A stretch of 64,000 nt of DNA from an uncultured Acidobacteriota bacterium. Its GTDB lineage: Bacteria; Acidobacteriota; Thermoanaerobaculia; Multivoradales; UBA5704. The translations under genes and the position numbers were made by a program. The stretch is from positions 4,288,001 through 4,352,000 of the forward strand of contig CAVYRF010000002.1 of NCBI GenBank assembly GCA_963770895.1, given 5' to 3'. Below the pieces are notes generated by a model. It ran no database searches, was not told where the DNA came from, and was given only the letters and a program-made list of their open reading frames with translations. Below are positions 16,002-36,315 of this stretch, piece by piece (the stretch's first letter is position 1; every line of letters begins with the position of its first letter).

Positions 16002-16220
16002 ATGAAGCGCAACAAGGGACACAAACTGGCCTTGCATCGCGAGACGCTGCACCTGTTGGAGCCGGCCGATCTCCGTGCCGCGGCGGGAAACATCACCACT
16101 CCGATCACGCCGCAGTGCACCGCCAGCTGCAACACCTGCGCCGGCAGCTGTGCGTTCAGCAACTGCTCGTGCGTCATCTCCGTCTGCCTCTGCAGCGTGC
16201 CCGTCGTGACCTGCGCCTGA
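16002..16220 (+). CDS. Cys/Ser/Thr-rich RiPP precursor-like peptide (72 aa)
   Basis: Strong RBS AGGAGG; leader with LALHRETLHLL (LxLxR-x5-L) ending AAAG; 43-aa putative core with 9 Cys, 6 Ser, 6 Thr. Confidence 0.8.
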   Translation: MKRNKGHKLALHRETLHLLEPADLRAAAGNITTPITPQCTASCNTCAGSCAFSNCSCVISVCLCSVPVVTCA

Positions 16221-16309: not shown

Positions 16310-17060
16310 ATGAAGCGCGCGATCGGCGCTAGAATCCGCGGCATGTCTCCCCTGGGGCGTGTCCTCTACTGCTTGCTGCTGCTCTGTCCGGCGCTGGCCT
16401 GTCGCGCCGCCACCGGCTCGGGGACGGATAGTGCGATCGGTCCGCTGCGCCCCGGCGATCATCGCATCGACCTGGACCACGGTGGACGGTCACGAACCTA
16501 CCTGGTGCATCTGCCGCCGGCTGCCGCGGCGGGAAAACCGCTGCCGCTGGTCCTCAACCTGCATGGCGCCGGCAGCAACGGGCAAGGCCAGCAGCGTTTT
16601 TCCGCCATGGACGAGCTTGCCGACCGGGCGGGATTCGTCGTCGTGTATCCCGACGGCACCGGCCGCTTCCGGCGGTTTCTCACTTGGAACGCCGGCACCT
16701 GCTGCGGCAGCGCGGCCCTGCAGCAGGTCGACGACGTGGGCTTCCTGGTTGCCGTCCTGGACGACTGCTTCCGCCGCACGCCGATCGATCGCCGGCGTGT
16801 CTACGCCACCGGCATGTCGAACGGCGCGATGATGGCTCACCGCCTGGCAGTGCAGGTGCCGGAGCGCTTCGCCGCCATCGCCCCGGTCGCCGGCGGCATG
16901 GTGTACCAGCGTTTCGGCGCCGGGCTGGCGGTGCCTGTCCTGCACATCCACAGCGTCGACGATCCCCTGGCGCTGTATGCCGCGCCTGCTCGGCGCCGAC
17001 ACCCTGGTGATCGACGCCAACCAGGTCATCTGGGATTTCGTCTCGCGCTTCCACCGCTGA
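16310..17060 (+). pseudogene. PHB-depolymerase/LpqC-family esterase with internal frameshifting deletion
   Basis: PLVLNLHGAG, VVVYPDG, WNAGTCCG, DDVGFL, TGMSNGAMMA, HIHSVDDP are present. The family-type C-terminus IDANQVIWDFVSRFHR* is in the +1 frame (16977-17060), and the intervening catalytic-His segment is missing. Confidence 0.7.
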
Positions 17061-17134
17061 GCGCACCACAACGACACTTTGATGACGGTAGAAGTATTGG
17101 CCGGCTACACTTGCCGCCGGCAAGGAGATCACGG

Positions 17135-17587
17135 ATGCCCAAGCTGCCGGAAGAGGATCGATTGGCCGGGGCGCTGAGCCGCCGCGAGGCGATGCAGACG
17201 ATGGCGGCACTGGGCACCCTGCTGGGCATCGGTCGCCTGGAATCGACGCCGCTGCAGGCAAGGAGAACGATCATGGACGTGACGACCACCAAGGACGCGG
17301 CCACGGCGACGCCAAAGGTTGCCAAACGGCGGCTTGCAAACGACCGCGTGCGGGTCCTGGAGCACATCAGCAATCCTGGCGACAAGGAAGAGTGGCACGC
17401 CCATCCGGCCATGGCCGTCTACGTGGTGAGCGGCGGCACCCTGCGCATCACCACGGCCGACGGCCAGACCAAGGACGTCGAATTCGTCACTGACGACGTC
17501 CTCTTCCGCGAGCCCACCACCCACACCACCGAAAATATCGGCAAAACACAGCTGCACGCCATCCTGGTCGAGCTGCTGAAACCGTAG
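17135..17587 (+). CDS. Cupin-domain protein (alternative start at 17273)
   Basis: NDRVRVLE...PGDKEEWHAHP, YVVSGG, THTTENIG cupin motifs; AAGGAG before both ATG 17135 (Tat-like SRREAM leader) and ATG 17273. Confidence 0.8.
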   Translation: MPKLPEEDRLAGALSRREAMQTMAALGTLLGIGRLESTPLQARRTIMDVTTTKDAATATPKVAKRRLANDRVRVLEHISNPGDKEEWHAHPAMAVYVVSGGTLRITTADGQTKDVEFVTDDVLFREPTTHTTENIGKTQLHAILVELLKP

Positions 17588-22700: not shown

Positions 22701-22953
22701 CGCCAAGCAGCGCCAGCAGATCGGCGAGATCCATACCCTCGCGCGCCAGGCGCCGCCGGAACACGCCGTCGCGCGGACTCTGCGCCTGCCAGCGGGCGAG
22801 GATGCGTGCCGCCCGATCTGCATCCGGAGGGGCCGCGGGCGGCACGCCGGCCGCCCGTCCGGCCGCCGCGCGCTCGCTCAGCGTCAGGGCTTTGTACCAA
22901 TCGGCGGCGGCCAGGATGTCGCCAGGGTCCATCAGCTCCGCCGTCGATTCCAT
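19702..22953 (-). CDS. lanM: Class II lanthipeptide synthetase LanM
   Basis: Dehydratase motifs GDLHRGGRSV, IYKPRS, TDMHHENLIA, VDLEALF, VRVLVRLT, DIPMF; cyclase motifs GFAHGAAGI, WCHGAPG, LCHGDLG. Start ATG 22953 preferred over 22992. Confidence 0.95.
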   Translation of the reverse strand: MESTAELMDPGDILAAADWYKALTLSERAAAGRAAGVPPAAPPDADRAARILARWQAQSPRDGVFRRRLAREGMDLADLLALLGETPDSLASRAGAARPPAWLQELAAAFTTAPTAPFPAAALTPDHQGTLLELVRPLLDRGFSRLTEQLRALAAASGTRLFEPGQAAASLAGAIGPRLLFLLKRTLAVELHLAAQDNRLTGDTAEDRYASFVAWLREPGVALALLRQYPVAARQAVECIGRWVDAGAELCAHLVADAPRLGVLVAGRQDLGTLVEVRTGLGDLHRGGRSVTRLRFDSGVELIYKPRSMAVEATFQQLLAWTERHGFAPGWQLLPVLDAGDHGWAAVVTAHPCADAAQVERFYQRQGGYLALLYLLSATDMHHENLIAAGEHPFLVDLEALFHPLDQTWGHATPPQTPLPDTVLRVGLLPDASWGGKGDQDGIDLSGLAATAGQVIPQPILRVTDAGTDRMRFLHQHLEAPVGGEHRPTLGGADVPLAPYVDAVAQGCERMLRLLARHRDQLLAPDGPLAAFAHHPVRVLVRLTMAYGTLLADSHHPFVLGDGLERDRLLDRLWTIAGDYPELERLVPAEHRDLQHGDIPMFTTWPDSRDVQTSDGEILTDVLDRSGLDAVGDRLRRLDDADVARQVWIVRNSLAGAAAVPAPPSDYQLVAAASSPAADQLLVAALAVGRRLEALAFRRGRGAVWFGPEPQANALKSMLAPAGPDLYLGSPGIALFLGYLGAVTGEAWAADLARAATVTMLEQAAPTSTLLSSIGAFAGWGGVLYTLTHLAALWDDAALLDQAEACALRLAPEIARDPHGDVVAGAAGCLVCLLGLWRTRGAHWLLQLAVQCGDRLLELAQPMERGLGWIIPLAGPRPLAGFAHGAAGISWALLQLAEATGAARYRDAALAALDYERSLYAAELGNWPDLRAGAEVVPGQPHFMCAWCHGAPGIALGRLDSLRRLSGDDLALARTEAQAALRTTLAGGFGKGHSLCHGDLGNLEALTLAATVLDDPDLAARAGRLAGGILADIRRHGWRLGIAVAAEAPGLMIGLAGIGHGLLRVAAPHRVPAVVRLAPPPES

Positions 22954-23066
22954 CGCGAAACTTCTTATATTCTTTTCATTTCCATTCGACAATACGATGT
23001 AGTCCTATCTGTTTTCGCGGCGAGCTCTTGTCCCGCATCCTGGCCCAGGCGTCACCCATACACTAG
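22954..23066. promoter_or_regulatory. AT-rich divergent promoter region (lanM leftward, NRPS cassette rightward)
   Basis: AAACTTCTTATATTCTTTTCATTTCC tract in GC-rich DNA between divergent genes; no boxes assigned. Confidence 0.5.
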
Positions 23067-24701
23067 GTGGAACGCTTGGCGAATTTGAGCACGCCGCAGG
23101 TCGGCGATCCCGCGCCGCGGGGACAGGGCGGGACCTTGGCGGCAGCCCGTTCGGGACCGGACCTGGTGCGCTGGCTGGCGCGCGATGCGGCGGTGCGCCA
23201 GGGCGTGATCACCGACGGACGGCACAGCGTTTCGTACGCCGAGACCGCGCTGCTGCTCGAGGAGCTGGACGGGCACTTCGCGCGCGGCGGCGTGACCAGG
23301 CGCCAGCCTCTGGCGCTCGAATGCTCGCAGACGGTGGCCGGGGCGCTGGCGATCCTGTATGTGCTGAGCAGGGAATACGACGTGGTGCTGCTGCCGGAGC
23401 TGGAGGAGACGGCGAAGGAGGCAGGGACTCCCCGTTTCATACCCAGCTTCTGCAAGCATGTCGTCACCGCCCGGTCGGCCGTGGCGCAGACGGTCGACTC
23501 TCCGCTTGCCTGCATCGCCGTCGCGGTCAACCAGGCGTTCGCCGCGGAGCCGGTGGTGACGGCCTTCGCCGGCCCGGATCTGTATCTGCGGACCTCGGGC
23601 AGCACCGGCATTCCCAAGCTGGCCAGGATGTCGCACCAGAAGTGGCTCGACAACGCGATGGCGTGCGTGGAGCGGTGGCAGCTCAGCGCCGCCGATCGCC
23701 TGGCGGTGCCGGTGCCGATCTTCCACAGCTACGGTTTCGGCGCCGCGTTCCTGCCCGGTCTGCTGGCCGGGGCGGCGATGGACCTGGGGTCGGGCGGCAA
23801 CATCCTGCGCTACCTGCAGCGCGAGGAGCGCTTTGCGCCGACCGTGGGGTTCCTGACGCCGGCCCTATGCGACATGTTCCTGACGGTGCGCAAGTCGCCG
23901 CGCCGGTACCGGCTTTCGGTCACCGCGGGCGACAAGATCAAGCGCGAGACGACGGCGCGATTCGAGCCGCTGTTCGGGCCGCTGCTCAATCTTTACGGCA
24001 GTGCCGAAATGGGAGCGGTTTCGGCGCCGGCGGCGGCCGATCCGCCGGCGGCGCGGCTGGGCACGGCGGGCTACCCGCTGGGCTCGATCGAGCTGCGCCT
24101 GACCGACGCGGGAGAGGCGGCCGGCGCGGGGGAGGAGCCCGGCGGCGCCGATGCGCCGGGCGGAGATCGCGTCGGGTTGCTGCAGTGCCGCCAGCGGTAC
24201 GGCTTTGCCGGCTACCTGGCCTGGCAGGACGGCTGGCGCTTCGAGCCTCACGGCGACGACCAGTGGTTCACCACCGGGGACCTGGCGAAGATTCGCGCCG
24301 ACGGCTACCTGGAGATCCTCGGCCGCTCCGGGTTGAGCGTCAAGCGGGACGGCCTGCTGGTGCTGTTCGCCGACGTCGAGACGGCGATGGAGAAGGTGCC
24401 CGGCGTCGAGCGGGCGGTGCTGGTGGCCGTGGGCGAGAGCCGCCGCGGCAGCCGGCTGGTCGGGGTCTGCCTGGCGCGCCCGCCGGCCCAGGCGCCGCAG
24501 CCGGAAGCCGTGCGCCGCAAGTGTGTCGAGCTGCTGCCGCGCTACGCGGTGCCCGACGCGGTGATCGTCGTTGCGTCGCTGCCGCAGCTGCCGAGCGGCA
24601 AGATCGATCGCCGTGCGATCCGCGAGCAGGTCGTCCAGGCGCAGGCGAGCGCGTCGCCGGCGCCGGCTGGCGATCGAAAGAAAGATGGATCGACGTCTTG
24701 A
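23067..24701 (+). CDS. Stand-alone adenylate-forming enzyme (acyl-AMP/CoA ligase family)
   Basis: RTSGSTGIPK, PIFHSYG, NLYGSAE, FTTGDL, LPSGKIDR. Start uncertain. Confidence 0.88.
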   Translation: MERLANLSTPQVGDPAPRGQGGTLAAARSGPDLVRWLARDAAVRQGVITDGRHSVSYAETALLLEELDGHFARGGVTRRQPLALECSQTVAGALAILYVLSREYDVVLLPELEETAKEAGTPRFIPSFCKHVVTARSAVAQTVDSPLACIAVAVNQAFAAEPVVTAFAGPDLYLRTSGSTGIPKLARMSHQKWLDNAMACVERWQLSAADRLAVPVPIFHSYGFGAAFLPGLLAGAAMDLGSGGNILRYLQREERFAPTVGFLTPALCDMFLTVRKSPRRYRLSVTAGDKIKRETTARFEPLFGPLLNLYGSAEMGAVSAPAAADPPAARLGTAGYPLGSIELRLTDAGEAAGAGEEPGGADAPGGDRVGLLQCRQRYGFAGYLAWQDGWRFEPHGDDQWFTTGDLAKIRADGYLEILGRSGLSVKRDGLLVLFADVETAMEKVPGVERAVLVAVGESRRGSRLVGVCLARPPAQAPQPEAVRRKCVELLPRYAVPDAVIVVASLPQLPSGKIDRRAIREQVVQAQASASPAPAGDRKKDGSTS

Positions 24702-24728
24702 GCGACCTCAAGGCGCGCCGGAGGCATC

Positions 24729-26108
24729 ATGGGATTGATTGAATCGGCAACACCCACCCGCCGCGGCGGCGCGGCGGGTCACCAAGGCGCTGGCCTTGCA
24801 ATCAAGGGCGGCGTGCCGGTGGTGGCGCCGGGACAGATCGACGAGCAGTGGCCGGTGGTCAGCGAGGAAGACATCGCGGCGGTCACCGCCACCCTGCGCT
24901 CGGGCAAGCTCACCTGGGTCAACAACGAAACGGTGGCGGCGCTGGAGCGGGAGTGGGCGGCCTACGTCGGATCCCGCCACTGCATCGCCTTCAACAGCGG
25001 CACGTCCGCCCTGCACGGCGCGGTGGCGGCGGCCGGCGTCGAGCCGGGGGACGAGGTGGTGGTGCCGGCGTTCACCTTCATGGCTTCGGCCGCCGCGGTG
25101 GTCCATCACCAGGGGCTGCCGGTGTTCGTCGACGTCGACCCCCGCACGTTCACCCTGGATCCGGCGCTGCTCGCCGAGAAGATCACCGATCGGACGCGGG
25201 CGATCATGGCCGTCCACCTGAGCGGCCTGCCCGCCGCCATGGACGAGATCCTGGCCATCGCGCGGCCGCGCGGCATCAAGGTGATCGAAGATCTGTCGCA
25301 GGCTGCCGGAGCGATTTACAAGGGGCGAAAAGTCGGGTCGATCGGCGACGTCGGCGCCTGCAGCATCATGGCGGGAAAGAACCTGCCGACCGCCGGCGAG
25401 GGCGGCCTGCTGACCACCGACGATGCCGATCTGCGCAATCGCGCCGATCAGCTGAAGATGTTCGGCGAACGGGTCACCGACTCCGGCCGGCGCGAGTTCA
25501 ACGTCGCCACCTACTCGTGGAACTACCGCTTCAGCTCGATCCTGGCGGCCTTCACGTCGAGCCAGCTGCGGCGCCTGGACGACAACACCTTGCGGGTGCA
25601 GGAGGGGGCGCGCTACCTGGCCGACGGGATGTCCGAGATCCCCGGCCTGCTGCCGCCCCTGGTGCCCGCGGGGAGCACGCACGCGTATCACCACTTCCGC
25701 TTCCGGGTCGATCCGCAGGCCGCCGGCATCGACCTGCCGGCCGGCCGGTTCCGCAAGGCGCTGCAGGATTTGGTCAGCGCGGAAGGGGTGCCGCTCAAGC
25801 AGTATCAGAACCGGCCGGTGCCCGGCCAGTGGATGTTCCAGGAGACGCGCGGCTGTCCCTTCGACTGCGATCACGCCAGCCACAAGGTGCGCTACGACAT
25901 CCACGACTATCCGCGCACCCTGGACGCCATCCGCAGCTCGCTGGTGATCGGCAATCGCCTGTGCATGGCGACTTTCTTCGAACGCCGCAACCTGGACCTG
26001 TACCTGGACGCCTTGCACAAGGTTTTCAGCCATCGCGACGAGCTGGTCGCCTACGGCCGTGCGCTCGAGTACCAGGAACCGTGGGAGGAGGACCTCCGGG
26101 TCGCCTGA
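24729..26108 (+). CDS. DegT/DnrJ/EryC1/StrS-family PLP aminotransferase
   Basis: NSGTSALH, GDEVVVPAFTFMAS, AIMAVHLSG, IEDLSQA, GKNLPTAGEGG (PLP Lys), WNYR. Confidence 0.92.
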   Translation: MGLIESATPTRRGGAAGHQGAGLAIKGGVPVVAPGQIDEQWPVVSEEDIAAVTATLRSGKLTWVNNETVAALEREWAAYVGSRHCIAFNSGTSALHGAVAAAGVEPGDEVVVPAFTFMASAAAVVHHQGLPVFVDVDPRTFTLDPALLAEKITDRTRAIMAVHLSGLPAAMDEILAIARPRGIKVIEDLSQAAGAIYKGRKVGSIGDVGACSIMAGKNLPTAGEGGLLTTDDADLRNRADQLKMFGERVTDSGRREFNVATYSWNYRFSSILAAFTSSQLRRLDDNTLRVQEGARYLADGMSEIPGLLPPLVPAGSTHAYHHFRFRVDPQAAGIDLPAGRFRKALQDLVSAEGVPLKQYQNRPVPGQWMFQETRGCPFDCDHASHKVRYDIHDYPRTLDAIRSSLVIGNRLCMATFFERRNLDLYLDALHKVFSHRDELVAYGRALEYQEPWEEDLRVA

Positions 26109-26137
26109 CCGTGCCGGACCCGAGAGGACACGACGAC

Positions 26138-27061
26138 ATGGGAGATACCGCCGCCATCGCCACCGCCACCGCCACCGCCACCGCCGCGGGCCAGGACGCC
26201 GCTGCCGGCGAACGCCTGGCGGACCTCGCCGCCCTCGCCGCCCTCAAATCCGCCGCCGACACCCTGCGCCGCCACATCGTCAACATGGCGGCGGATTCCG
26301 GCGCCCACGTCGGCGGTTCCATGTCGGTGGTCGAGATCCTTGCGGTGCTGTATTTCGACGGCGTGCTGCGGGTCGATCCGGCGCAGCCCCAGGCCGGCGG
26401 ACGCGACTACCTGATCTTCAGTAAAGGACATGCCAGCTCGGCGCTGTACGCCGCGCTGGCCGAGCGCGGCTTCTTCCCGGCGTCCGAGCTCGCCTCCTAC
26501 AAACAGATGGGGAGCCACCTGGCCGGCCATCCGTCCAAGAGCATCCCCGGCGTCGAGCTGGCGACCGGTTCGCTGGGTCATGGCCTGGCGGTGGGCAACG
26601 GCATCGCGCTGGCAGGCAAGCACGACGGCGGCGCCCATCGCGTCTTCGTGGTGATGGGCGACGGCGAATGCCAGGAGGGCGTGGTCTGGGAGGCGGCGAT
26701 GGCCGCGGCGCACTACCGGCTGGACAACCTGGTCGCGATCGTCGACCGCAACGGCGTGCAGGAGGACGGCCCGACGGAAACGATCATGTCCCTGGAGCCG
26801 TTCGCCGAGAAGTGGCGCGCCTTCGGTTGGGAAGTGCGGGAGGTGGACGGTCACGACGTGGCCGCGCTGTCCCGCGAGCTGCACGCGGTGCCGTTCGCGG
26901 CGGGCAAGCCGTCGCTGCTGCTCGCCCGCACGGTCAAGGGCAAGGGGCTGTCGTTCGCCGAGAACACCCATACCTGGCACTACGGCAAGCTGAGCTCGGC
27001 GCAGCGGGACCAGGCGCTCGCCGAGATCGCGGCCAGCCGCGCCGGCGAAGGCGGGGCATGA
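26138..27061 (+). CDS. Transketolase N-terminal (ThDP-binding) subunit
   Basis: HVGGSMS, FSKGHAS, LAGHP, TGSLGHGL, GDGECQEG..WEA...VDRN, TVKGKG, WH; ATG 26138 with GAGGA upstream. Confidence 0.92.
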   Translation: MGDTAAIATATATATAAGQDAAAGERLADLAALAALKSAADTLRRHIVNMAADSGAHVGGSMSVVEILAVLYFDGVLRVDPAQPQAGGRDYLIFSKGHASSALYAALAERGFFPASELASYKQMGSHLAGHPSKSIPGVELATGSLGHGLAVGNGIALAGKHDGGAHRVFVVMGDGECQEGVVWEAAMAAAHYRLDNLVAIVDRNGVQEDGPTETIMSLEPFAEKWRAFGWEVREVDGHDVAALSRELHAVPFAAGKPSLLLARTVKGKGLSFAENTHTWHYGKLSSAQRDQALAEIAASRAGEGGA

Positions 27062-28077
27062 CGGCAGTCAGCTTGGGATGGACGGCGCCCGCCGGCCTCA
27101 CGGCGGTGGCGGCCAGCCGCCTGGCGCAGTGCGAGCTGGCGCGCGAGGACGGCCGATTTTTCTCGCTCGAGGCCAGGCCCGGCGATGCCGCCGGCTGGCC
27201 GTTCCGCGCCGAGTTCCCCGAGCGCTACGTCGCCTGGCCCGGCGCCGAGGCCAGCCTGATCGGCGCCGCCGGCGGCCTGGCGCTGGCCGGCAAGATCCCG
27301 CTCGTCAACCTGTTTTCGTCCTTCGCCCTGATCCGCGCCTGCGAGCAGGTGCGGCTCGATCTCTGCTATCACCAGGCTGACGCCAAGCTGTTCGGCGGCA
27401 TCGGCAGCGCGGGGGCCGCGGACCAGGGCTTTCCGGAGCCCGCCCGGCTGGCGCTCGAAGACCTCGCCGTGGCGCGCAGCATGCCCAACATGACGGTGAT
27501 CGCGCCCGCCGATGCCACCGCCGCCTACCATGCGACCCTTGCCGCCGGCCGCCATGCCGGTCCGGTCTACCTCCGGCTGGCCCGCGACGCCGCGCCGCGG
27601 GTCTATGGCGACGCCGGCCGCGACGGCGCCGGCGGCGGGTTCGAGATCGGCAAGGGCATCGTGCTGCGCCAGGGGTCCGACCTGACGCTGGTCGCCGCCG
27701 GCGCCGGCGTGGTGGCGGAGAGCCTGACCGCCGCGGCGCTCCTGGAGCGCGACGGCATCGCCGCCCGCGTCATCGATCTGCACACCGTCAAGCCGGTCGA
27801 CCGCGCGCTGCTGGCGCAGGCGGCCGCGGAGACCGGGCTGATCGTCACCGTCGAAGAGCACCCGGTGCAGGGAGGCCTGGGCGGCGCCGTGGCCGAGGCG
27901 CTGGGCGATGAATACCCGGTGGCGATGCGCATCCTGGGCATCCGCGACGGCTGCCGCGAGCGCACGGGAACGCGAGAGGAGCGTCTGCGCCGCTACGGCC
28001 TGGACGCCGCGGCGATCGCCGCCAGCGCCGCCAGCGCCCGCCAGGCGCTCGGCGGGCGGGAGCGCCGGGGAAGGTGA
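27058..28077 (+). CDS. Transketolase C-terminal subunit, degenerate paralogue
   Basis: FPERY, RACEQVR, MPNMTVIAPAD, GPVYLRL, TVKPVD, VEEH..GGLG; GIAE is changed to PGAE and the GPxH loop to GFPEPAR. Confidence 0.85.
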   Translation: MTAVSLGWTAPAGLTAVAASRLAQCELAREDGRFFSLEARPGDAAGWPFRAEFPERYVAWPGAEASLIGAAGGLALAGKIPLVNLFSSFALIRACEQVRLDLCYHQADAKLFGGIGSAGAADQGFPEPARLALEDLAVARSMPNMTVIAPADATAAYHATLAAGRHAGPVYLRLARDAAPRVYGDAGRDGAGGGFEIGKGIVLRQGSDLTLVAAGAGVVAESLTAAALLERDGIAARVIDLHTVKPVDRALLAQAAAETGLIVTVEEHPVQGGLGGAVAEALGDEYPVAMRILGIRDGCRERTGTREERLRRYGLDAAAIAASAASARQALGGRERRGR

Positions 28078-29117
28078 ATCCGATGGGGCTCAGCATGTCC
28101 GACACCGCCGCCGGCCCGGCCCTGGGCTCGCCGGAATGGATCGCCGCCTACAGCCTTTCGAGCCGCACCGCCTGCCGCAAGGCGCAGCTCGACCTGGCGC
28201 GCGTCGAACCGCGCCTGTTTTCGCTCGAAGGCGACCTGGGCCAGTACATGGTCCCCTTCCATCGCGAGTTTCCCGACCGCTTCGTGCAGATCGGCATCGC
28301 CGAGGGCGACCTGGTGGGCACGGCGGTGGGCATGGCGCTCGGCGGCAAGATCCCGTTCGTCAACACCTTCGCTTCCTTCCTGTCGATGCGCGCCTGCGAG
28401 CAGGTGCGCTTTGCCGTTGCATCGCAAGGCGCCAACGTCAAGCTGGTGGGCTATGTCGCGGGTCTGTCGGCGTGCTTCGCCGGTCCCTCCCACCACTGCG
28501 TCGAAGACATGGCCATCCTGCGCTCGCTGCCCAACCTGGTGATCCTGTCGCCGGCCGACGCGGTCGAGACCTACAAGGCGACCTGGGCGGCGGCGGCGTG
28601 GGACGGCCCGGTCTACCTGCGGCTGGGCAGGGCCGACACGCCGCAGGTCTACTTCGGCGACTACGAGCTGACGATCGGCAAGGCCGTGCAGCTGGCCGCG
28701 GGAGACGACCTGGCGCTCCTCGCCACCGGCAACCAGATGGTCGCCGAGGCGGTCGCCGCGGGCAAGCGCCTGGCGGCTTTGGGCATCGCGGCGCGGGTGC
28801 TCAACGTGCACACCGTCAAGCCGCTGGACCGCGAAGCGGTGCTTGCCGCCGCCGCCACCGGTGCGGTGGTGACGGTCGAGGACCACAACGTCCTGGGCGG
28901 CCTCGGCGGCGCAGTGGCCGAGCTGCTGGCGCAGGAGGCGCCGGTGCCGCTCGAGCGCGTGGGAGTGCGAGACTGTTTCTGCAGCACCGTCGGACCCTAC
29001 GAGGAGATGTTGGCGCATTACGGCATGGACGCGGCGGCGATCGCGGCCGCGGCGCTGCGCGTCCTGGAGCGCAAGCGGCTGGGCCGCCGGCGGGACCTCC
29101 TGCCGGCAGAAAATTGA
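28074..29117 (+). CDS. Transketolase C-terminal (pyrimidine-binding) subunit
   Basis: FPDRFVQIGIAEG, RACEQVR, AGPSHHCVED, GPVYLRLGR, VKPLD, VEDH..GGLG. Confidence 0.92.
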   Translation: MNPMGLSMSDTAAGPALGSPEWIAAYSLSSRTACRKAQLDLARVEPRLFSLEGDLGQYMVPFHREFPDRFVQIGIAEGDLVGTAVGMALGGKIPFVNTFASFLSMRACEQVRFAVASQGANVKLVGYVAGLSACFAGPSHHCVEDMAILRSLPNLVILSPADAVETYKATWAAAAWDGPVYLRLGRADTPQVYFGDYELTIGKAVQLAAGDDLALLATGNQMVAEAVAAGKRLAALGIAARVLNVHTVKPLDREAVLAAAATGAVVTVEDHNVLGGLGGAVAELLAQEAPVPLERVGVRDCFCSTVGPYEEMLAHYGMDAAAIAAAALRVLERKRLGRRRDLLPAEN

Positions 29118-29147
29118 ACGCAATCGTGCGAAGGAGCTCAGGCCAGC

Positions 29148-29891
29148 ATGATATTCACCCCGGACTTCGTCTTCATCCACTTTACAAAGACGGGCGGGAC
29201 GTACGTGACGAAGATGCTCGCCCGTCTCTACGGCGACCGCTTCGTCGACGTCGACCAGCACGCGACGTGCAGCGACGTGCCGCAGGAACACCGCGGCAAA
29301 CCGCTGCTTTCGACAGTACGCAATCCTTACGATCGCTACGTGTCGCAATACCGCTACGGGTGGTGGAAGATCTCGCCGCACGAGTATTGCGGCGAGGCGG
29401 CGATGCGCGAAATGTATCCTCACTACCCCGACATCACCTTCGCCGAGTTCCTGGAGCTGGCCAATACCAGGTTCGTGAGCTGCCACCGCGGCTCCCCCAA
29501 CGGCTTCGTCAACGACAACTTCCCGCCCGAACGCCGGCTGGGCTGGCACACCGAAAGCTTCATCCGTTTCTATTTCCACGATCCGCGCCAGGTCTACGCG
29601 CGGCTCGACGAGCAAGCCATCGCCAGCGGCAGCTACCGCGGCGACATGTACGACGTCCGCTTCCTGCGCACCGACAACCTGCGGCGCGAGCTGCACGACT
29701 ACCTGCTCGGCGTGGGGCACAGCCCGGAGGATCTGGCGTTCATCCTCGCCTCCGAGAAGGTGCTGCCGGACGACGGCCTGGTGAGACCGCAGCACGACCC
29801 GTGGCAGAGCCATTACACCCCAACGCTCCAAGAGTTCGTGCGAACTCGCGAGCGGCTCATCTTTGATCGATTTCATGATTTCGATCAGTGA
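29148..29891 (+). CDS. Sulfotransferase-family protein
   Basis: PAPS-binding motifs FIHFTKTGGT (5'-PSB) and VRNPYDRYVSQY (3'-PB); AAGGAG upstream. Confidence 0.82.
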   Translation: MIFTPDFVFIHFTKTGGTYVTKMLARLYGDRFVDVDQHATCSDVPQEHRGKPLLSTVRNPYDRYVSQYRYGWWKISPHEYCGEAAMREMYPHYPDITFAEFLELANTRFVSCHRGSPNGFVNDNFPPERRLGWHTESFIRFYFHDPRQVYARLDEQAIASGSYRGDMYDVRFLRTDNLRRELHDYLLGVGHSPEDLAFILASEKVLPDDGLVRPQHDPWQSHYTPTLQEFVRTRERLIFDRFHDFDQ

Positions 29892-29970
29892 TGGACGGCA
29901 TCGCTTGTGACGATCGCGGCGGGCTCGCATCCTTGTCCCGCTTCGCTACGGCAGTGATACCTAAGTCTAT

Positions 29971-30051
29971 GGGTAGCAAGTGGGTTCCAAGTCGGTAACA
30001 AGTCGGTAGCAACCGATTGCGCCGATCGATGCCGGTCGATGCCGATCTGAT
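29971..30051. repeat. Two short tandem arrays (4 x 11 bp and 3 x about 10 bp) upstream of the permease-NRPS genes
   Basis: GGGTAGCAAGT/GGGTTCCAAGT/CGGTAACAAGT/CGGTAGCAACC at 29971-30014; GCCGATCGAT/GCCGGTCGAT/GCCGATCTGAT at 30021-30051. Confidence 0.75.
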
Positions 30052-30086
30052 GACCAGGGCATGAACAGGATGGAGGATTGACCCCG

Positions 30087-32534
30087 ATGGGGAGCGTCTG
30101 GCGGGATGTGCGCTACGGACTGCGGCAGCTGGTCGCGGACAAGGTGTTTTCGGTTGCCGCGATCCTCACCCTGGCCTTGGGACTCGGTGCCGCGATCACC
30201 ATCTTCACCGTCGTCAACGCAGTGCTGTTGCAAAGGGTTCCCTATCGCTCCCCGGAGCGGCTGGTGATCTTACAGGGCAGCGACAGCGACAACGGCACGA
30301 TTCAGCAGGTGTCGATCTCGCAGACCGACGTGGCGGACTGGCGCGAGCGGAGCACGGTCTTTTCCGGCCTGTCGGTGTGGGGCAGCCTGGCCTTCAACCT
30401 GGAGCAGGGCGAACGGTCGCAGCGCCTGTCGGCCGAGCTGGTCAATCAGAACTACTTCGCGCTGCTCGGGGTGAAGCCCGCGCTGGGCCGCTTCTTCGAT
30501 CCCGAGGAAGACTTGAAGCCCCTGGAGCGGTATGTCGTCGTGCTCGGCTACGACCTCTGGCGGAGCTCCTTTGGCGCCGATCCGGCGATCCTTGGCCGCA
30601 AGCTGCAGTTCAACGGCATGTCCTACCAGGTCGTCGGCGTGGGGCCGCGGGACTTCCACGGCCTGTCGGACAAGGCCGATCTGTGGGTGCCGTCGATGCT
30701 GCCGCCGATCCGCTCGTTCGTGACCTCGCGCGGCTTTCGCTGGGCGTCGGGCGTCGGGCAGCTCAAGCCGGGCGTCAGCCTGAGCCAGGCGCAGCAGCAG
30801 ATGCACGGTGTCACGGACGCTCTCGACAAGGAGATGCCCGACACCAATCACGGGTTCGGCGTCACTCTCACCCCGATCAAGGAATACCTGCTGGGCGAGA
30901 TGCGCGGCGGCCTGCTGGTGCTGACCGTCGGCGCGGCGCTGCTGCTGCTGATGGCCTGCATCAACGTCGGCAACCTCCTGCTGACGCGGGCCGCTGCCCG
31001 CCAACGCGCCTGGAGCATCCAGGTGGCGCTGGGGGCCAGCCGCCGCCGCTTGATCCGCCAGCTGTTGACCGAGAGCCTCCTGCTGTCGCTGTGCGGCGCC
31101 GTCGCCGGGTTTCTCCTGGCGCAGTGGGCCACCCGCGCCTTGATCGCCGTCAGCGGCATCAAGTTCCCGAGCTTCGTCCACATCGGCGTGTCGCCGGAGG
31201 TGATCGCGGTGACTCTGGGCCTGGCGGTCGTCTGCGGCGTGGCGTTCGGGCTGGCGCCGATCCGGGTGAGCTTTCGCTCCGACCTCACCGCGAGCCTGGG
31301 CCGCAACGACAAGCTGCCGCCGAGCCGCGGCTGGAACCGCTTCCAGAACGTCCTGGTCGTGGTCCAGGTGGCGTTGGCCCTGACGCTGTCGGTCGATTCC
31401 GTCCTCATGGCCAAGAGCTTTCGCAAGATGATCGGCGAAGACCTGGGGTTCCGCCCGGCGAACATCCTGAGCTACCGCGTCGACATGCGCGGGTCGCGCT
31501 ACGACAGCGAGGCCTTTGTCACCAAGCTGCTGGGTCAGGAATACCTGCCCCGCGTCGCGGCCGTGCCGGGCGTGCAGCAGGTGGCGATGGCGGACCCGAC
31601 GGTGCCGACGGACCAGCTGGTCGAACGGTTCATCACCATCGAGGACCACGACAGCAACGCGGCCAACGGCGCCTACCCGGCCCTGGTGCACGCGGTCAGT
31701 CCGCAGTATTTCGACATCTTCCGCATACCGATCTTGAGCGGCCGCAGCTTCAACGAGCACGACACCGGCACCTTCGCCGTGATCGTCAGCAAGGCCATGG
31801 CGGACCAGCAGTGGCCGGGCAAGAGCCCGATCGGCAGGCGTCTCAAGCTGGGCGCGCGCGTCGGCGGGCCGGCGATCAACTGGCTCACCGTCGTGGGGGT
31901 CGCCGGCGAAGTCAAGTATCAAGGCTTTGGGGCCGGGGCGCCGCCGGCGCCCGACATCTACGTGTCGCTGCTGCAGTTCATCTTTCGCCCGCCGCTGACC
32001 ATCAACTTCCTGGTCCGGCCGCAGCCGGGCGTTTCGACGGCGCAGCTGCGGCAGGCCCTGCACCGGCAGATGGTGGGGATCGATCCCGAGGTGCCGGATT
32101 ACGACGTCGCCACCATGGACGATCGCCTGGCCCGCCAGACCGACAAGGAGAGGTTCCAGCTCATCCTGATCGACGTCTTCGCCATCCTGGCGCTGCTCCT
32201 GGCGGCCATCGGCATCTATGGCGTGATCTCCTACGGCGTGGCGCAGAGAAGGGCCGAGATCGCCGTGCGCATGTCGCTGGGGGCCGACCGCCGCAGCATC
32301 GTCGGCATGGTGGTCGGACGCGGCGCCGTGCTGACCGCGGTGGGGCTCGGCCTGGGGCTGCTGGCGGTCTTCGCCTTGAGCCCGCTGCTGGTCAGCCTGC
32401 TGTACAAGACCAGCATCGCCGATCCGTGGAGCCTGCTGGGCACCTCGGCCGGCCTGTTCGCCATCACGCTCGTCGCCAACTACATCCCGGCGCGCCGCGC
32501 CGCGACCTTGGATCCGATGATGGGTCTGCGCTAG
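30087..32534 (+). CDS. ADOP-type duplicated MacB/FtsX ABC permease
   Basis: DVRYGLRQL...LTLALGLGA..IFTVVNAVLL, LLMACINVGNLLL, QLLTESLLL, GIYGVISY.V.QRRAEI.VRMSLGA, PARRAATLDP; ATG 30087 is well spaced from GGAGGA. Confidence 0.92.
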   Translation: MGSVWRDVRYGLRQLVADKVFSVAAILTLALGLGAAITIFTVVNAVLLQRVPYRSPERLVILQGSDSDNGTIQQVSISQTDVADWRERSTVFSGLSVWGSLAFNLEQGERSQRLSAELVNQNYFALLGVKPALGRFFDPEEDLKPLERYVVVLGYDLWRSSFGADPAILGRKLQFNGMSYQVVGVGPRDFHGLSDKADLWVPSMLPPIRSFVTSRGFRWASGVGQLKPGVSLSQAQQQMHGVTDALDKEMPDTNHGFGVTLTPIKEYLLGEMRGGLLVLTVGAALLLLMACINVGNLLLTRAAARQRAWSIQVALGASRRRLIRQLLTESLLLSLCGAVAGFLLAQWATRALIAVSGIKFPSFVHIGVSPEVIAVTLGLAVVCGVAFGLAPIRVSFRSDLTASLGRNDKLPPSRGWNRFQNVLVVVQVALALTLSVDSVLMAKSFRKMIGEDLGFRPANILSYRVDMRGSRYDSEAFVTKLLGQEYLPRVAAVPGVQQVAMADPTVPTDQLVERFITIEDHDSNAANGAYPALVHAVSPQYFDIFRIPILSGRSFNEHDTGTFAVIVSKAMADQQWPGKSPIGRRLKLGARVGGPAINWLTVVGVAGEVKYQGFGAGAPPAPDIYVSLLQFIFRPPLTINFLVRPQPGVSTAQLRQALHRQMVGIDPEVPDYDVATMDDRLARQTDKERFQLILIDVFAILALLLAAIGIYGVISYGVAQRRAEIAVRMSLGADRRSIVGMVVGRGAVLTAVGLGLGLLAVFALSPLLVSLLYKTSIADPWSLLGTSAGLFAITLVANYIPARRAATLDPMMGLR

Positions 32535-32556
32535 CGCTGGGACGAAGGCGCAGGCG

Positions 32557-35500
32557 ATGCAGGTTACAGAGGCCACGGGCGGGCTGGCGGTCGCAGAGCT
32601 CCACGCACCGCACGAGCATCCGGTCGAAGCCTTCCTGCAGGCGGCGCTGGCGCGGGTTCTGGGGTGCGACCCCGCCCGCATCGACCGCGCGACGCCGATG
32701 GCGTCCTACGGCCTCGATTCGCTGGCGGCGGTCGAGCTGTGCCACGCGGTCGAGGAGGAGCTCGGGGCGGCGCTGGATGTCGCGGACCTGCTGTCCGGCT
32801 GTTCCATCGCGGAGGCGGCGCGGCAGGTGGCGGCGCTCGGCGCCGCCGCAAACGGTGCCCGGCAGCGCGGGGCGCCCGGCGATCGCGCCGGCTTCTCCCC
32901 CGCCCTCGCCGCCGCCGAATTCCCGCTCAGCCTGGGCCAGCAGGCGCTGTGGATCCTGCATGGGCTGGCGCCCGAAAGCGCCGCCTACGTCATCGCCGGC
33001 GCCGCGCGGCTGGTCGGGGGCGTCGATGCGGCGGCCCTGGGCCGCGCCGTCCGCACCCTGGTGGCACGCCACCCGGCGCTGCGCACGACGTTCGCCAACG
33101 GGCCTGGCGGGCCGGTCCAGCGCGTGCATCCGCCGGCGGCGCCGGCAGCGGCCGCGTGGGCGCGCGAGGACGCCGCGGGCTGGAGCGGCGAGGAGCTCGC
33201 GCGGCGCGTGCGGCAGGCGGCGTTTCGCCCGTTCGACCTGGAGCACGGCCCGGTGCTGCGCGCCGTGCTGTTCGATCGCGGACCGCGCGAGCCCGCGGCG
33301 AGCGTGCTGGTCCTGGCGGTGCACCACATCGCCGCCGACTTCTGGTCGCTGGCGGTGCTGCTGCGCGAGCTGGGGGAGCTCTACGCCGGCGGCGGCGCCG
33401 CCGCCCTGGCCGCTCCCGGCGTGCACGTCGCCGACCTGGTGGCGCGGCAGCGGCAGGAGCTGGCGGCCGGGCGGTACGACCCGATGCTGGCGGCGGCGCG
33501 GCGGCAGCTGGCCGGCGCGCCGCCGCTCGACCTGCCGCTGGACCGCCCGCGGCCGGACCTGCAGACCTTCCGCGGCGCGCGGGTGGGCGGCCGCCTGGGC
33601 CGCGACCTGGCGCTGGCCGCCGCCGCCCTGGCGCGGCGCTGCGACGCGACGCTCTTCACGGTGCTGCTGGCCGCCTTCGAGGTGCTCCTGGCGCGCCACG
33701 GGGGGCAGGAGGACTTCCTGGTCGGAACGCCGACCGCGGGCCGCTCGTCGCGCGCGCTGGCCGGCCTGGTCGGCTACCTGGTCAACCCGGTGCCGCTGCG
33801 GGCCGACCTGGCGGCCGACCCCGACGTCCTGACGCTGGTGGCCCGGGCGCGCCGCGCCACGCTCGACGGGTTGGCGCGGCAGGACCTGCCGTTCACCCTG
33901 CTGGCCGAGGGGCTGGCGGAGGCGCGCGATCCGAGCCGTCCGGCGGTGTTCCAGGCCATGCTCGTGCTCGAACGTTCGCCGGTGCCGGAGCTGGAAGGCC
34001 TGGCTGCCTTCGCCCTGGGCGAGGGCGGCGCCCGCGTCCGCCTCGGCGCCGCCGGCGCCGCTCCGACCGGCGGCGAGCTGACGCTCGAGTCGGTCGCCCT
34101 GGAGCGGTCCGCGGCCCAGGTGGACCTCACGCTGCTCGCCGCCGAGATCGGCGGCGACCTGGCCGCCGCCTTCGAATGGAACCTCGACCTGCTGGACGCC
34201 GCGACGGCGCGGCGCATGTTCGGCCATCTGGTCAACCTGTTGACCGCGATGACCCGCCATCCGGAGCGGCGTCTTTCGGCGCTGCCGATGCTCGGCCCGG
34301 CCGAGGTGCAGCAGGTCGTGCGCGAGTGCAACGACACCGGCCTGGCGCTGGGCGGGGAGTGCCTGCACCAGCTGATCGAAGCGCAGGTCGAGCGCACTCC
34401 GGGAGCGCCGGCGGTGGTCTTCGCCGGCGAGACCCTGACCTACCGCGAGCTGAACGCCCGCGCCAACCGGCTGGCTCTGCACCTGGCGCGGCTGGGGGTG
34501 GGGCCGGAGGTGCGGGTGGGGCTCTGCCTGGAGCGGTCGGCCGAGCTGATCGTGGCCCTGGTCGCGACGCTCAAGGCGGGCGGCGCCTTCGTGCCGATCG
34601 ACCCGTCCTACCCCGCGCCGCGGATCGCCCACATGCTCGGCGACGCCCGCGTGTCCGTGGCGCTCACCGAGGAGCGGATCGCCCCCTTGCTGCCGCCTGG
34701 GGCCGCCCGCACCGTGCTGCTCGACGGCGGCGGCGACCACGACGCGGCCTGGCGGAGCGGACCCGATCCCGGCAACCCGGCCGCGGGTGGCGGCGGCCCG
34801 CTGCGCCTGGCGTACGTCCTGTACACCTCGGGCTCGACCGGCGAGCCCAAGGGGGCGATGAACAGCCATGGCGCCATCGTCAACCGCTTGCGGTGGATGC
34901 AGGAGACGTTCCGGCTGACGGCGGCGGACAGGGTGCTGCAAAAGACTCCGGCCAGCTTCGACGTCTCGGTCTGGGAGTTCTTCTGGCCGCTCGCGACCGG
35001 CGCCTGCCTGGTGGTGGCGCGGCCCGGCGGGCACCTGGACCCCCCCTACCTGCGCGACGAGATCGCCCGCGCCGGCGTCACCACCGTGCACTTCGTCCCC
35101 TCCCTGCTGCAGGTCTTCCTGGAGCAGCCGGGGCTGGAGGCCTGCGCCGGCCTGCGCCGTGTGCTGGTGAGCGGCGAGGCTCTCGGGCGCGATCTTGCCG
35201 AGCGCTTCCAAGAGCGCCTGGGACGGCTGGGGAGCGAGCTGCACAACCTGTACGGTCCGGCGGAAGCGGCGGTGGACGTCACATGGTGGCCCTGCGCGGC
35301 CGCCGGCGACGCGCGCCCGGTGCCGATCGGCAGGCCGATCGACAACGTCCAGATCCACCTGCTGGACCGCCACCTGCGGCCGGTTCCCATCGGCGTCGCC
35401 GGCGAGCTGCACATCGCCGGCGTGCAGGTGGCGCGCGGCTACCTGGGCCGCCCGCGGCTGTCGGCCGAGCGGTTCATCCCGGACCCGTTCGCAGCCGAGC

Positions 35501-36315
35501 CGGGCAGGCGGCTCTACCGCACCGGCGACCTGGTGCGGCGGCGCGCCGGCGGCGAGCTGGAGTTCCTGGGGCGTCTGGACCACCAGGTCAAGATCGGCGG
35601 CGTCCGCATCGAGCTGGGAGAGATCGAGCACGCCCTGGCCGGCCATCCGGCGGTGCGCGAGGCGGTGGTGCTGGCGCGCCGCAGGGGCGGCAACCTGCGC
35701 CTGGTCGCCTACGTGGTCCCGGCGACGCCGGAAGTCCCGGCAGCGGCGGCGGACGGCGCGCCCGACGCCGCGGCGCTGCGCGCGCACCTGGTGGGGAAGC
35801 TGCCGGCGACGATGATCCCCGCCGTCTGGGTGTTCCTGCCCAGCCTGCCGCTGTCGCCGAGCGGCAAGGTGGACCGCAAGGCGCTCCCCGAGCCGGACCA
35901 GGAAGCGGCCATGGCGCCCTGGGCGCCGCCGGCAACGGCCGCCGAAAAGGCGCTGGCGGCGATCTGGTGCGAGGTCCTGGGGCGCCAAGGCGTCGGCGTG
36001 CACGACAACTTCTTCAGCCTGGGCGGCGATTCGATCCTCGGCGTCCAGGTGCTGACGCGGGCCGCGCAGGCCGGCCTGCAGCTGACGCCGCGCCAGGTCT
36101 TCCGCCATCCCACGATCGCCGAGCTGGCCGCCGTCGCCGCGCCGATCGCCGCCGCCCCCGATGCGGACGACGCGGACGATGCGCACGATGAGGACGATCC
36201 CGCCCAGCGCGCGGCGCCGGCCGCCCTCGACGCCGCCGCATCCGGCCTGTCCGAACGCGACCTGCAGCGGTTGCTGAGCAGGCTCGTCCAGGGCGAGCAG
36301 GAGCCGGGTCGATGA
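32557..36315 (+). CDS. NRPS starter protein: T(ACP)-C-A(Ser)-T
   Basis: N-terminal carrier YGLDSL; C motif HHIAADFWS; A code read by eye DVWHLSLVDK (Ser); terminal T GGDSI; short helical tail. Confidence 0.93.
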   Translation: MQVTEATGGLAVAELHAPHEHPVEAFLQAALARVLGCDPARIDRATPMASYGLDSLAAVELCHAVEEELGAALDVADLLSGCSIAEAARQVAALGAAANGARQRGAPGDRAGFSPALAAAEFPLSLGQQALWILHGLAPESAAYVIAGAARLVGGVDAAALGRAVRTLVARHPALRTTFANGPGGPVQRVHPPAAPAAAAWAREDAAGWSGEELARRVRQAAFRPFDLEHGPVLRAVLFDRGPREPAASVLVLAVHHIAADFWSLAVLLRELGELYAGGGAAALAAPGVHVADLVARQRQELAAGRYDPMLAAARRQLAGAPPLDLPLDRPRPDLQTFRGARVGGRLGRDLALAAAALARRCDATLFTVLLAAFEVLLARHGGQEDFLVGTPTAGRSSRALAGLVGYLVNPVPLRADLAADPDVLTLVARARRATLDGLARQDLPFTLLAEGLAEARDPSRPAVFQAMLVLERSPVPELEGLAAFALGEGGARVRLGAAGAAPTGGELTLESVALERSAAQVDLTLLAAEIGGDLAAAFEWNLDLLDAATARRMFGHLVNLLTAMTRHPERRLSALPMLGPAEVQQVVRECNDTGLALGGECLHQLIEAQVERTPGAPAVVFAGETLTYRELNARANRLALHLARLGVGPEVRVGLCLERSAELIVALVATLKAGGAFVPIDPSYPAPRIAHMLGDARVSVALTEERIAPLLPPGAARTVLLDGGGDHDAAWRSGPDPGNPAAGGGGPLRLAYVLYTSGSTGEPKGAMNSHGAIVNRLRWMQETFRLTAADRVLQKTPASFDVSVWEFFWPLATGACLVVARPGGHLDPPYLRDEIARAGVTTVHFVPSLLQVFLEQPGLEACAGLRRVLVSGEALGRDLAERFQERLGRLGSELHNLYGPAEAAVDVTWWPCAAAGDARPVPIGRPIDNVQIHLLDRHLRPVPIGVAGELHIAGVQVARGYLGRPRLSAERFIPDPFAAEPGRRLYRTGDLVRRRAGGELEFLGRLDHQVKIGGVRIELGEIEHALAGHPAVREAVVLARRRGGNLRLVAYVVPATPEVPAAAADGAPDAAALRAHLVGKLPATMIPAVWVFLPSLPLSPSGKVDRKALPEPDQEAAMAPWAPPATAAEKALAAIWCEVLGRQGVGVHDNFFSLGGDSILGVQVLTRAAQAGLQLTPRQVFRHPTIAELAAVAAPIAAAPDADDADDAHDEDDPAQRAAPAALDAAASGLSERDLQRLLSRLVQGEQEPGR

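Follow-up and report, generated by a model that had tools for sequence, protein, structure and literature searches.

The window analysed here is a 64,000-nucleotide stretch of an acidobacterial genome (G000:C2:4288001-4352000; the genome, G000, measures 8.16 Mb with 71% GC in 3 contigs and is 95% complete). The ADOP permease and the named homologues indicate a Thermoanaerobaculia-like member of the Acidobacteriota, from a soil lineage. It carries six genes, for a ligase, an aminotransferase, a three-chain transketolase and a sulfotransferase, upstream of a nonribosomal peptide synthetase (NRPS) that starts with an acyl carrier protein (ACP). In a sequence-only reading, the six genes had been taken as one pathway. 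Comparison with relatives indicates instead that the window brings together pieces of three functions, each inherited on its own, of a single lipopeptide NRPS/polyketide synthase (PKS) cluster, and we are highly confident of the modular split, with the cassette genes divided between a module A and a module B and the starter apart from both. Substrates, products and loading partners are inferred below from the gene content, co-occurrence, homology and residue states observed. The genes are as follows, with A, C and T standing for adenylation, condensation and thiolation domains.

23067-24701, + strand: LIG1, a stand-alone adenylate-forming (AMP) ligase (PF00501 and PF13193), member of module B
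24729-26108, + strand: DegT-fold aminotransferase with the catalytic Lys motif (PF01041), module A
26138-27061, + strand: transketolase N (alpha) chain with intact thiamine diphosphate (ThDP) motif GDGE...N (PF00456), module A
27058-28077, + strand: transketolase C chain beta1, catalytically eroded (PF02779 and PF02780), module A
28074-29117, + strand: transketolase C chain beta2, intact by alignment to human transketolase, module A
29148-29891, + strand: Sulfotransfer_2-family sulfotransferase with both motifs for binding 3'-phosphoadenosine 5'-phosphosulfate (PAPS) (PF03567), accessory to module B
30078-32534, + strand: ADOP-family duplicated permease (TIGR03434 over cut-off)
32557-36315, + strand: NRPS1, T-C-A-T, with an ACP of the FAAL (fatty acyl-AMP ligase) type, starter C, A and T; a lipoinitiation module without its FAAL
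36312-64000, + strand, running on to G000:C2:4356630: NRPS/PKS2, 10,773 amino acids, with eight A modules and one ketosynthase-acyltransferase-T module

The six cassette open reading frames (ORFs) are co-oriented on the + strand with intergenic gaps of -4 to 30 bp, and LIG1 reached no NCBIfam family at cut-off. The permease separates the cassette from NRPS1 and lies directly 5' of it in relatives too. NRPS1 opens with the ACP (GLDSL at residue 52) followed by the C domain (HHIAADFWS at residue 256), with no loading domain in cis; the cassette and these motifs are all there, in agreement with the earlier reading. Read by motif, the A-domain codes run Ser, Thr, Ile/Val, DIFHFGLILK, Leu-like, DALFFGLIAK, then the PKS module, Ile-like, DVETSGGVIK and DARHFVFLIK, where the amino-acid names (Ser in NRPS1, Thr, Ile/Val, Leu-like and Ile-like) are our assumed equivalents of the codes. 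NRPS/PKS2 ends in a terminal C domain with no thioesterase, and the cluster continues past the window with 12 tailoring genes that include two free ACPs and a second ligase.

A scan of 18 ORFs in the window and a further 13 ORFs or pieces downstream of it showed no nucleoside diphosphate (NDP)-sugar enzyme or soluble glycosyltransferase. The earlier statement that no glycosyltransferase or NDP-sugar enzyme is visible holds to that extent, except for one membrane protein about 17 kb beyond the window end.

L001:18814, after the last tailoring gene: PMT_2-family membrane glycosyltransferase

The combination of nucleotidyltransferase, dehydratase and soluble glycosyltransferase with no NRPS, which would mark a polysaccharide or NDP-aminosugar locus, is not found here, and the cassette is NRPS-associated in the window and in relatives, as had been proposed. 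Searches of the open-access literature likewise brought up no matching characterised cluster.

The split of the cassette emerged from a search of 92 genomes of the host family, G000 included, many of them fragmented and each scored by its top candidates. The aminotransferase matched in 14 genomes and was counted in 13, with G840 dropped (46% identity, in a LysX/BtrH cluster); beta2 matched in 13, again with G840 dropped; the sulfotransferase matched in 26, with 19 at at least 56% counted and 7 at 40-43% dropped. The ligase was found in 26/92 genomes, and 20 of these 26 have no aminotransferase: the two occur together in 6 genomes, the ligase only in 20 and the aminotransferase only in 7. Close orthologues of the sulfotransferase co-occur with the ligase in 18/19 genomes and are found without the aminotransferase in 12/19. 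Aminotransferase and beta2, on the other hand, co-occur in 12 of 13. The view of the six genes as one pathway is not supported by these counts, since ligase and sulfotransferase mostly occur without aminotransferase or transketolase. The gene order of the cassette is also reshuffled in relatives.

When five ligase-only genomes were opened, the ligase lay within a two-ACP cassette, module B, directly behind a C-terminated NRPS, and in G840 the ligase also sits in such a cassette. In G783, a single contig of 100% completeness, an NRPS is followed by module B and the aminotransferase finds no match, and therefore the ligase does not need module A. LIG1 orthologues in relatives adjoin FlK, sulfotransferase/GrpB, ACP and radical SAM genes. 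In the genome of the window, the main part of module B lies behind NRPS/PKS2, past the end of the window.

L001:6627-18734 (G000:C2:4356627-4368734): module B, with two ACPs, two ligases and a class C radical SAM enzyme, of a kind found behind C-terminated NRPSs
Gene order, first half: unknown protein, HemN-type radical SAM enzyme, ACP, sulfotransferase-GrpB fusion, short-chain dehydrogenase/reductase (SDR), SagB-like oxidase
Gene order, second half: acyl-CoA dehydrogenase (ACAD), second ligase, second ACP, ACAD-like protein (no Pfam match), DapB, FlK thioesterase

Module B is a conserved and apparently undescribed cassette. PDB searches with both ligases, ACAD1 and the unknown protein gave generic matches or none; in the Atlas, the unknown protein falls close to clusters of 3-keto-disaccharide hydrolases (a family assigned to 18% of members). 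A loose parallel, compared by description, is the kribbellichelin krb cluster; in the portion of PMC9962454 consulted, this NRPS cluster has an additional C domain and encodes both an AMP ligase and a homologue of DapB. Module B differs from krb, as described there, in its second ligase, two free ACPs, class C radical SAM enzyme, ACAD pair, SagB-like oxidase, sulfotransferases, GrpB and FlK. LIG1 likely loads one of the free ACPs of module B, the product of which would serve the terminal C domain. G000 encodes an adenylyl sulfate (APS) kinase, and therefore PAPS can be made.

LIG1 had previously been assigned the task of loading the N-terminal ACP of NRPS1. However, this ACP proved to be an orthologue of FAAL-fused carriers: it is 71-76% identical to the ACPs of L032 and L173, which have the same permease-NRPS1 pair with a FAAL fused before the ACP, and forms a common clade with them (support 98). 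Both the ACP and the starter C domain are orthologous to FAAL-fused modules and the active Ser is kept, giving the FAAL-ACP-C type of lipoinitiation, and no cognate FAAL was found for NRPS1 in cis or in the cluster. An assembly error behind the absent FAAL was rejected in view of the bare ACP in G003 and G005 and by the own ATG of NRPS1, 22 bp past the permease. Bare carriers are also frequent in G000, where 20 of 77 long synthetase-like frames start with ACP-C (the 20 lie on C1 and C2) and 3 start with FAAL-ACP-C; of the 20, 16 show a plain G[LV]DSL motif and one follows another NRPS. One bare ACP is preceded by a FAAL C-terminal remnant and another has an apparent N-terminal remnant (C1:1518395 and probably C1:2172513). 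A FAAL search of G000, counting matches at at least 40% over 380 amino acids, gave five: three in NRPSs, one in a 2,327-amino-acid frame and one stand-alone.

G000:C2:910086-911972, - strand: orphan stand-alone FAAL, 629 amino acids, outside any cluster, about 3.4 Mb from NRPS1

Orthologues of the stand-alone FAAL (76-79%) are present in 6/9 same-genus genomes, five in frames of 607-720 amino acids and one in a frame of 1,293. We infer that FAALs in cis were lost repeatedly while one shared enzyme covered for them, and we regard it as quite probable that the NRPS1 ACP is loaded with a fatty acid by the distant FAAL. This enzyme, serving many NRPSs, would likely place an ordinary fatty acid on the NRPS1 ACP to give an N-acyl-serine. 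According to the sections of the review PMC11837247 that treat stand-alone FAALs, of which JamA and CylA are examples, such enzymes are usually encoded next to their ACP; the candidate here differs in lying about 3.4 Mb away, with 20 NRPS frames lacking a FAAL in cis, and our literature search found no paper on such a shared distant-FAAL arrangement. A bare N-terminal carrier in this genome is accordingly no sign of an exotic starter, and clusters of the genus would likely remain silent in heterologous hosts that do not also express the distant FAAL.

These data bear directly on the proposal that ligase, aminotransferase, transketolase and sulfotransferase together build a single starter, both aminated and sulfated, with the ligase loading it on the N-terminal ACP. 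The tight packing and common orientation of the genes, an ACP without a loader in cis, and the ligase and sulfotransferase that G003 likewise has upstream of a bare-ACP NRPS would all fit it. The proposal is nevertheless very improbable in view of the independent distributions of the cassette genes, the ACP orthologues that are FAAL-fused while the ligase is still kept (G041 has a FAAL in cis and, on another contig, a 66% ligase orthologue in module B), the bare ACP starts that are the norm in G000 and the reshuffled gene order. LIG1 as loader of the NRPS1 ACP was therefore rejected. What survives of the predicted aminated, polyhydroxylated and possibly sulfated starter is an aminated, hydroxylated unit that the transketolase and aminotransferase likely make; a sulfated starter is not supported, as the sulfotransferase tracks module B.

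The identity of that unit was approached through the aminotransferase, whose best PDB matches were 8GYH/I/J (315 bits) and 8Y96-98 (211 bits), followed by a perosamine synthase at 181 bits. By these matches, its closest solved relatives are Fic25 and Ser5, of clusters that build 2,6-diamino-5,7-dihydroxyheptanoic acid (DADH) on AmCP, the amino-group carrier protein. As given in the part of PMC11726168 consulted, 8GYJ is Fic25, which forms DADH on AmCP, and 8Y96-98 are SerTA. In the DADH route, the portion of PMC9570651 consulted gives the order transketolase, aminotransferase, sulfation and aziridine. The window has a split transketolase beside a Fic25/Vzb9-like aminotransferase, the arrangement expected of the DADH pathway. 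Eleven plasmid matches of the aminotransferase were found and seven opened, and a split transketolase adjoins it in 7/7; five of the seven lie in LysW/LysX/ArgC clusters (one unannotated, from our own ORF calls) and two in Mesorhizobium clusters. As a control, a transketolase was nearby in 0/80 generic DegT loci; a metagenome scan returned generic DegT patterns and no family member (35-50% identity) and serves as control only. Aminotransferase and alpha chain are fused in one 753-amino-acid protein (P0181). By PDB matches and plasmid loci, DADH formation is the closest chemistry, in place of the pactamycin 3-aminobenzoate or naphthyridinomycin glycolyl precedents invoked before. In a quick tree of 41 rows, the window aminotransferase falls in its own 24-row clade (support 98) with acidobacterial, alphaproteobacterial and actinobacterial members, the last including Amycolatopsis magusensis and Streptomyces sp. 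NBC_01262, and this clade in turn lies within a larger one of 34 rows (support 96), to which the DADH aminotransferases belong as well. The kinship with the DADH enzymes is real and does not by itself prove the substrate.

Two related loci were noted in passing. An acidobacterium of the same family holds an AmCP-type cluster at G840:C18 (L161:6542-16569) with BtrH, aminotransferase, transketolase, LysX, kinase and M20 genes. On the Mesorhizobium plasmid CP050294.1 (L050:7936-30031), the genes for the aminotransferase and the split transketolase are accompanied by those for two radical SAM enzymes, one BtrH-domain protein, a tyrosinase and a P450; with no LysW annotated, this stretch is possibly another carrier-free relative.

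Residue states of the transketolase chains bear on the acceptor. Aligned with human transketolase, beta2 keeps E366, R318 and R474 and lacks S345, H416 and D424, among which we take the human enzyme to have its catalytic Glu, two phosphate-binding Arg and, in D424, the Asp to which the 2-OH of a sugar acceptor binds. The Asp equivalent to D424 is missing from the beta chains (sites compared in 16 loci) and likewise from AmCP-cluster transketolases; this suggests that the acceptor is no sugar and has no 2-hydroxyl. Beta1 of the window keeps the cofactor-activating Glu and has lost the DLG Asp and the THH/THQ His, so that it does not have the residues of a canonical beta chain. Its state follows the surrounding genes: beta1 is intact in 8/8 loci with racemase-like and iron-dependent alcohol dehydrogenase (Fe-ADH) genes (mostly also with aldehyde dehydrogenase, ALDH, and creatinase-like M24 genes) and eroded in 8/8 loci without racemase-like and Fe-ADH genes, the window among them; these two genes are absent genome-wide from G000. 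Intact beta1 has neither phosphate-binding Arg.

L030:4452-13820, L038:3919-17429, L164, L165, L166, L170 and L171: longer module A, common to Acidobacteriota and an alphaproteobacterium
Genes of the longer module A: ALDH, creatinase-like M24, aminotransferase, alpha, intact beta1, racemase-like protein, Fe-ADH, beta2

In six pairs, dN/dS was 0.34-0.44 for eroded beta1 versus 0.16-0.25 for beta2, values that are rough at this high GC. Beta1 is relaxed and still in frame, as expected of a structural subunit, and was likely retained in that role.

Two other readings of module A were considered against these residues and neighbours. In the first, its product is an amino sugar, amino-polyol or aminocyclitol drawn from ketose or inosose metabolism and attached after assembly. 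The DegT fold, the inositol-type loci in the same wider aminotransferase clade, both phosphate-binding Arg in beta2 and the PMT_2 glycosyltransferase just beyond module B are compatible with it, and a sugar or amidine pathway is one way to read the ALDH, creatinase-like, racemase-like and Fe-ADH proteins of the longer module A. We consider it improbable, however, as the equivalents of the 2-OH-binding Asp, His416 and Ser345 are lost, no NDP-sugar genes were among the ORFs scanned, and no PMT_2 gene was recognised next to module B elsewhere, in loci inspected with no profile search for it. In the second, a glycolyl (C2) unit would be delivered to an ACP by the ThDP enzyme, following the precedent of naphthyridinomycin or quinocarcin, with the aminotransferase working independently of it. 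A split ThDP enzyme, free ACPs and an NRPS do share one cluster, but such a pathway presumably needs, linked to its ThDP enzyme, a dedicated ACP and either a KSIII-type transferase or a lipoyl domain, and neither of the latter was among the ORFs scanned. The free ACPs moreover follow module B, and aminotransferase and transketolase are near-obligate partners, once fused; a glycolyl-ACP origin is highly improbable.

The AmCP pathway itself could not be traced in the genome. The LysW-type carrier (PF21344) was found in 0/1 in G000 and 0/5 relatives, with the control positive in 5/14, and the LysW of L046 as a tblastn query gave no match in G000. LysX also had no match there, apart from one weak RimK-profile match in an unrelated 986-amino-acid frame, and the cluster holds no LysX/RimK ligase with kinase, reductase and M20 hydrolase; ArgB- and ArgC-like genes of G000 lie only on another contig. 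The BtrH domain (PF14399), which we take to be that of AziU3, was found in 0/1 in G000. The DADH-cluster sulfotransferase of L051 had no match in G000 (best E 1.1, against the window sulfotransferase), and ACAD1 matched the ACAD of L046 weakly (27%). An aziridine pathway by sulfate elimination was rejected because G000 has neither the AmCP-cluster type of sulfotransferase nor a BtrH gene.

Module A resembles the AmCP-DADH systems (AziC5/C6 and AziC7 of azinomycin, Fic25 of ficellomycin, Vzb9 of vazabitide A and SerTA of Serratia ATCC 39006), as far as the consulted portions of PMC9570651 and PMC11726168 describe them, in its split transketolase and DegT aminotransferase with an NRPS nearby, and in beta chains without the Asp for the sugar 2-OH. 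It differs in that no LysW/AmCP, LysX, BtrH-domain or AziU2-like gene was found in the 95% complete genome, and in having three transketolase chains versus two, a lost His416 site, an unrelated sulfotransferase and an aminotransferase clade of its own. Module A seems to work like a DADH module outside the AmCP pathway, and aziridine formation is unsupported. The chemistry suggested for module A matches a route proposed for azinomycin in the part of PMC9570651 consulted, in which an N-protected semialdehyde, N-acetylglutamate semialdehyde, is extended by C2 and aminated without a carrier; the window cluster has no acetyltransferase, kinase, reductase or deacylase of its own. A carrier-free transketolase system with a proline-analogue product, compared by description, likewise uses an amino-acid semialdehyde acceptor with a sulfotransferase nearby; there the ketone cyclises, whereas module A has a DegT aminotransferase as fixed partner.

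We consider a DADH-like chemistry of module A rather probable from these homologies. The alpha/beta2 transketolase would transfer a hydroxyacetyl C2 unit from a ketose phosphate onto a non-sugar aldehyde, most likely an amino-acid semialdehyde of primary metabolism (N-acetylglutamate or aspartate semialdehyde), and amination of the resulting ketone by the aminotransferase would create a 2-amino-1,3-diol end and with it a diamino-dihydroxy acid. This acid is predicted to enter the peptide at the penultimate module.

62499-63011, + strand: core of the penultimate A domain, code DVETSGGVIK (basic-residue), candidate loading site for the module A product

DVETSGGVIK-type codes were found only in G000, G844 and G005 among 33 loci read, and relatives of this A domain at at least 71% occur only in G844 and G005 (twice), both module A genomes, with the next best at 56%. 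G003 has module A without a DVETSGGVIK module, and the link of module A to the penultimate module is therefore suggestive only. The DxE code of G003 was rejected as a marker of module A, as DTEDIGTIVK is common in genomes without module A. The last A domain (L001 ~3300-4950) has the code DARHFVFLIK, and DxRH codes recur before the terminal C domain in G005, G008, G827 and G844. We assume that this code resembles domains activating the side-chain carboxyl of Glu, Asp or aminoadipate. The peptide itself serving as amino carrier through this module is a remote option, because DxRH modules also occur in G827, which has module B only, and are absent from G003.

The main rival to the DADH-like reading is a C-terminal cap made with module B: reduction would turn an acyl unit formed on the free ACPs into an aldehyde, the transketolase would extend it, amination would follow, and the amino-diol would act as the nucleophile with which the terminal C domain releases the peptide, so becoming its cap. 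All 11/11 loci checked end in a terminal C domain that closes the NRPS with a stop within 26 residues, and module B includes an SDR. The erosion of beta1 and the loss of ALDH, M24, racemase-like and Fe-ADH genes also track module B, as if module B had replaced an older aldehyde supply. On the other hand, module B is complete without module A in 20 of the 26 ligase genomes, and the close relatives of the basic-residue A domain occur only in module A genomes; we regard the cap as unlikely.

Several observations weigh against the DADH-like reading and the shared FAAL. Module A lies directly behind the terminal C domain in G003 and in one G005 locus, as capping would have it, and G003 has modules A and B without the DVETSGGVIK module, the spread of which may reflect kinship alone. 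No gene making the aldehyde or removing a protecting group was seen in the cluster among the ORFs scanned. The window aminotransferase is not nested among the DADH enzymes in what is a quick tree, and the 34-row clade includes three enzymes from transketolase-free loci, two of them near apparent inositol-pathway genes as judged by eye; 40-45% identity therefore does not fix the substrate. G005 starts with a bare ACP, yet no stand-alone FAAL orthologue was found in its 84% complete genome, and L035, a partial locus and one of the five same-genus or g6 NRPS1 orthologues, has a FAAL status inferred from BLAST only. The host-family counts come from fragmented genomes of non-independent kin, with only top candidates scored.

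Taken together, a carrier-free DADH-like module A, a separate module B and a FAAL-loaded starter have about an even chance of all being right. DADH chemistry opens the way to aziridine warheads, and mining for it has relied on the carrier gene. If this combined reading is true, the carrier-free version is invisible to such mining, and DADH chemistry extends to Acidobacteriota, some Alphaproteobacteria and Actinomycetota; a two-beta transketolase acting on non-sugar aldehydes with the aminotransferase would be a natural cascade to chiral amino-diols. As a tentative extension, which is probably wrong in at least some part, soil Acidobacteriota may have a carrier-free route to DADH-type diamino-diol acids with a three-chain transketolase whose two active sites differ (the Arg pair is present in beta2 and absent from beta1) and of which one has decayed to a scaffold in the lineage of the window, and one orphan FAAL may load some 20 lipopeptide lines of the genus, a single gene setting the lipid of most peptides.

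Upstream of the cassette, the window holds other genes of interest. A LanM over cut-off (19702-22992, - strand) is transcribed away from the cassette and was not seen in related loci; 3.5 kb from it lies a 72-amino-acid Cys/Ser/Thr-rich candidate precursor (16002-16220, + strand). A cyclic-peptide ABC exporter (TIGR01194; 17628-19514, - strand) possibly exports the NRPS product. At 16310-17587 (+ strand), a polyhydroxybutyrate (PHB)-depolymerase-like esterase runs into a cupin through an odd middle stretch and may represent two genes fused by a frameshift. Two CHAT-domain genes, one with TCAD7, adjoin an LCAT-like lipase at 8678-13899 (- strand).

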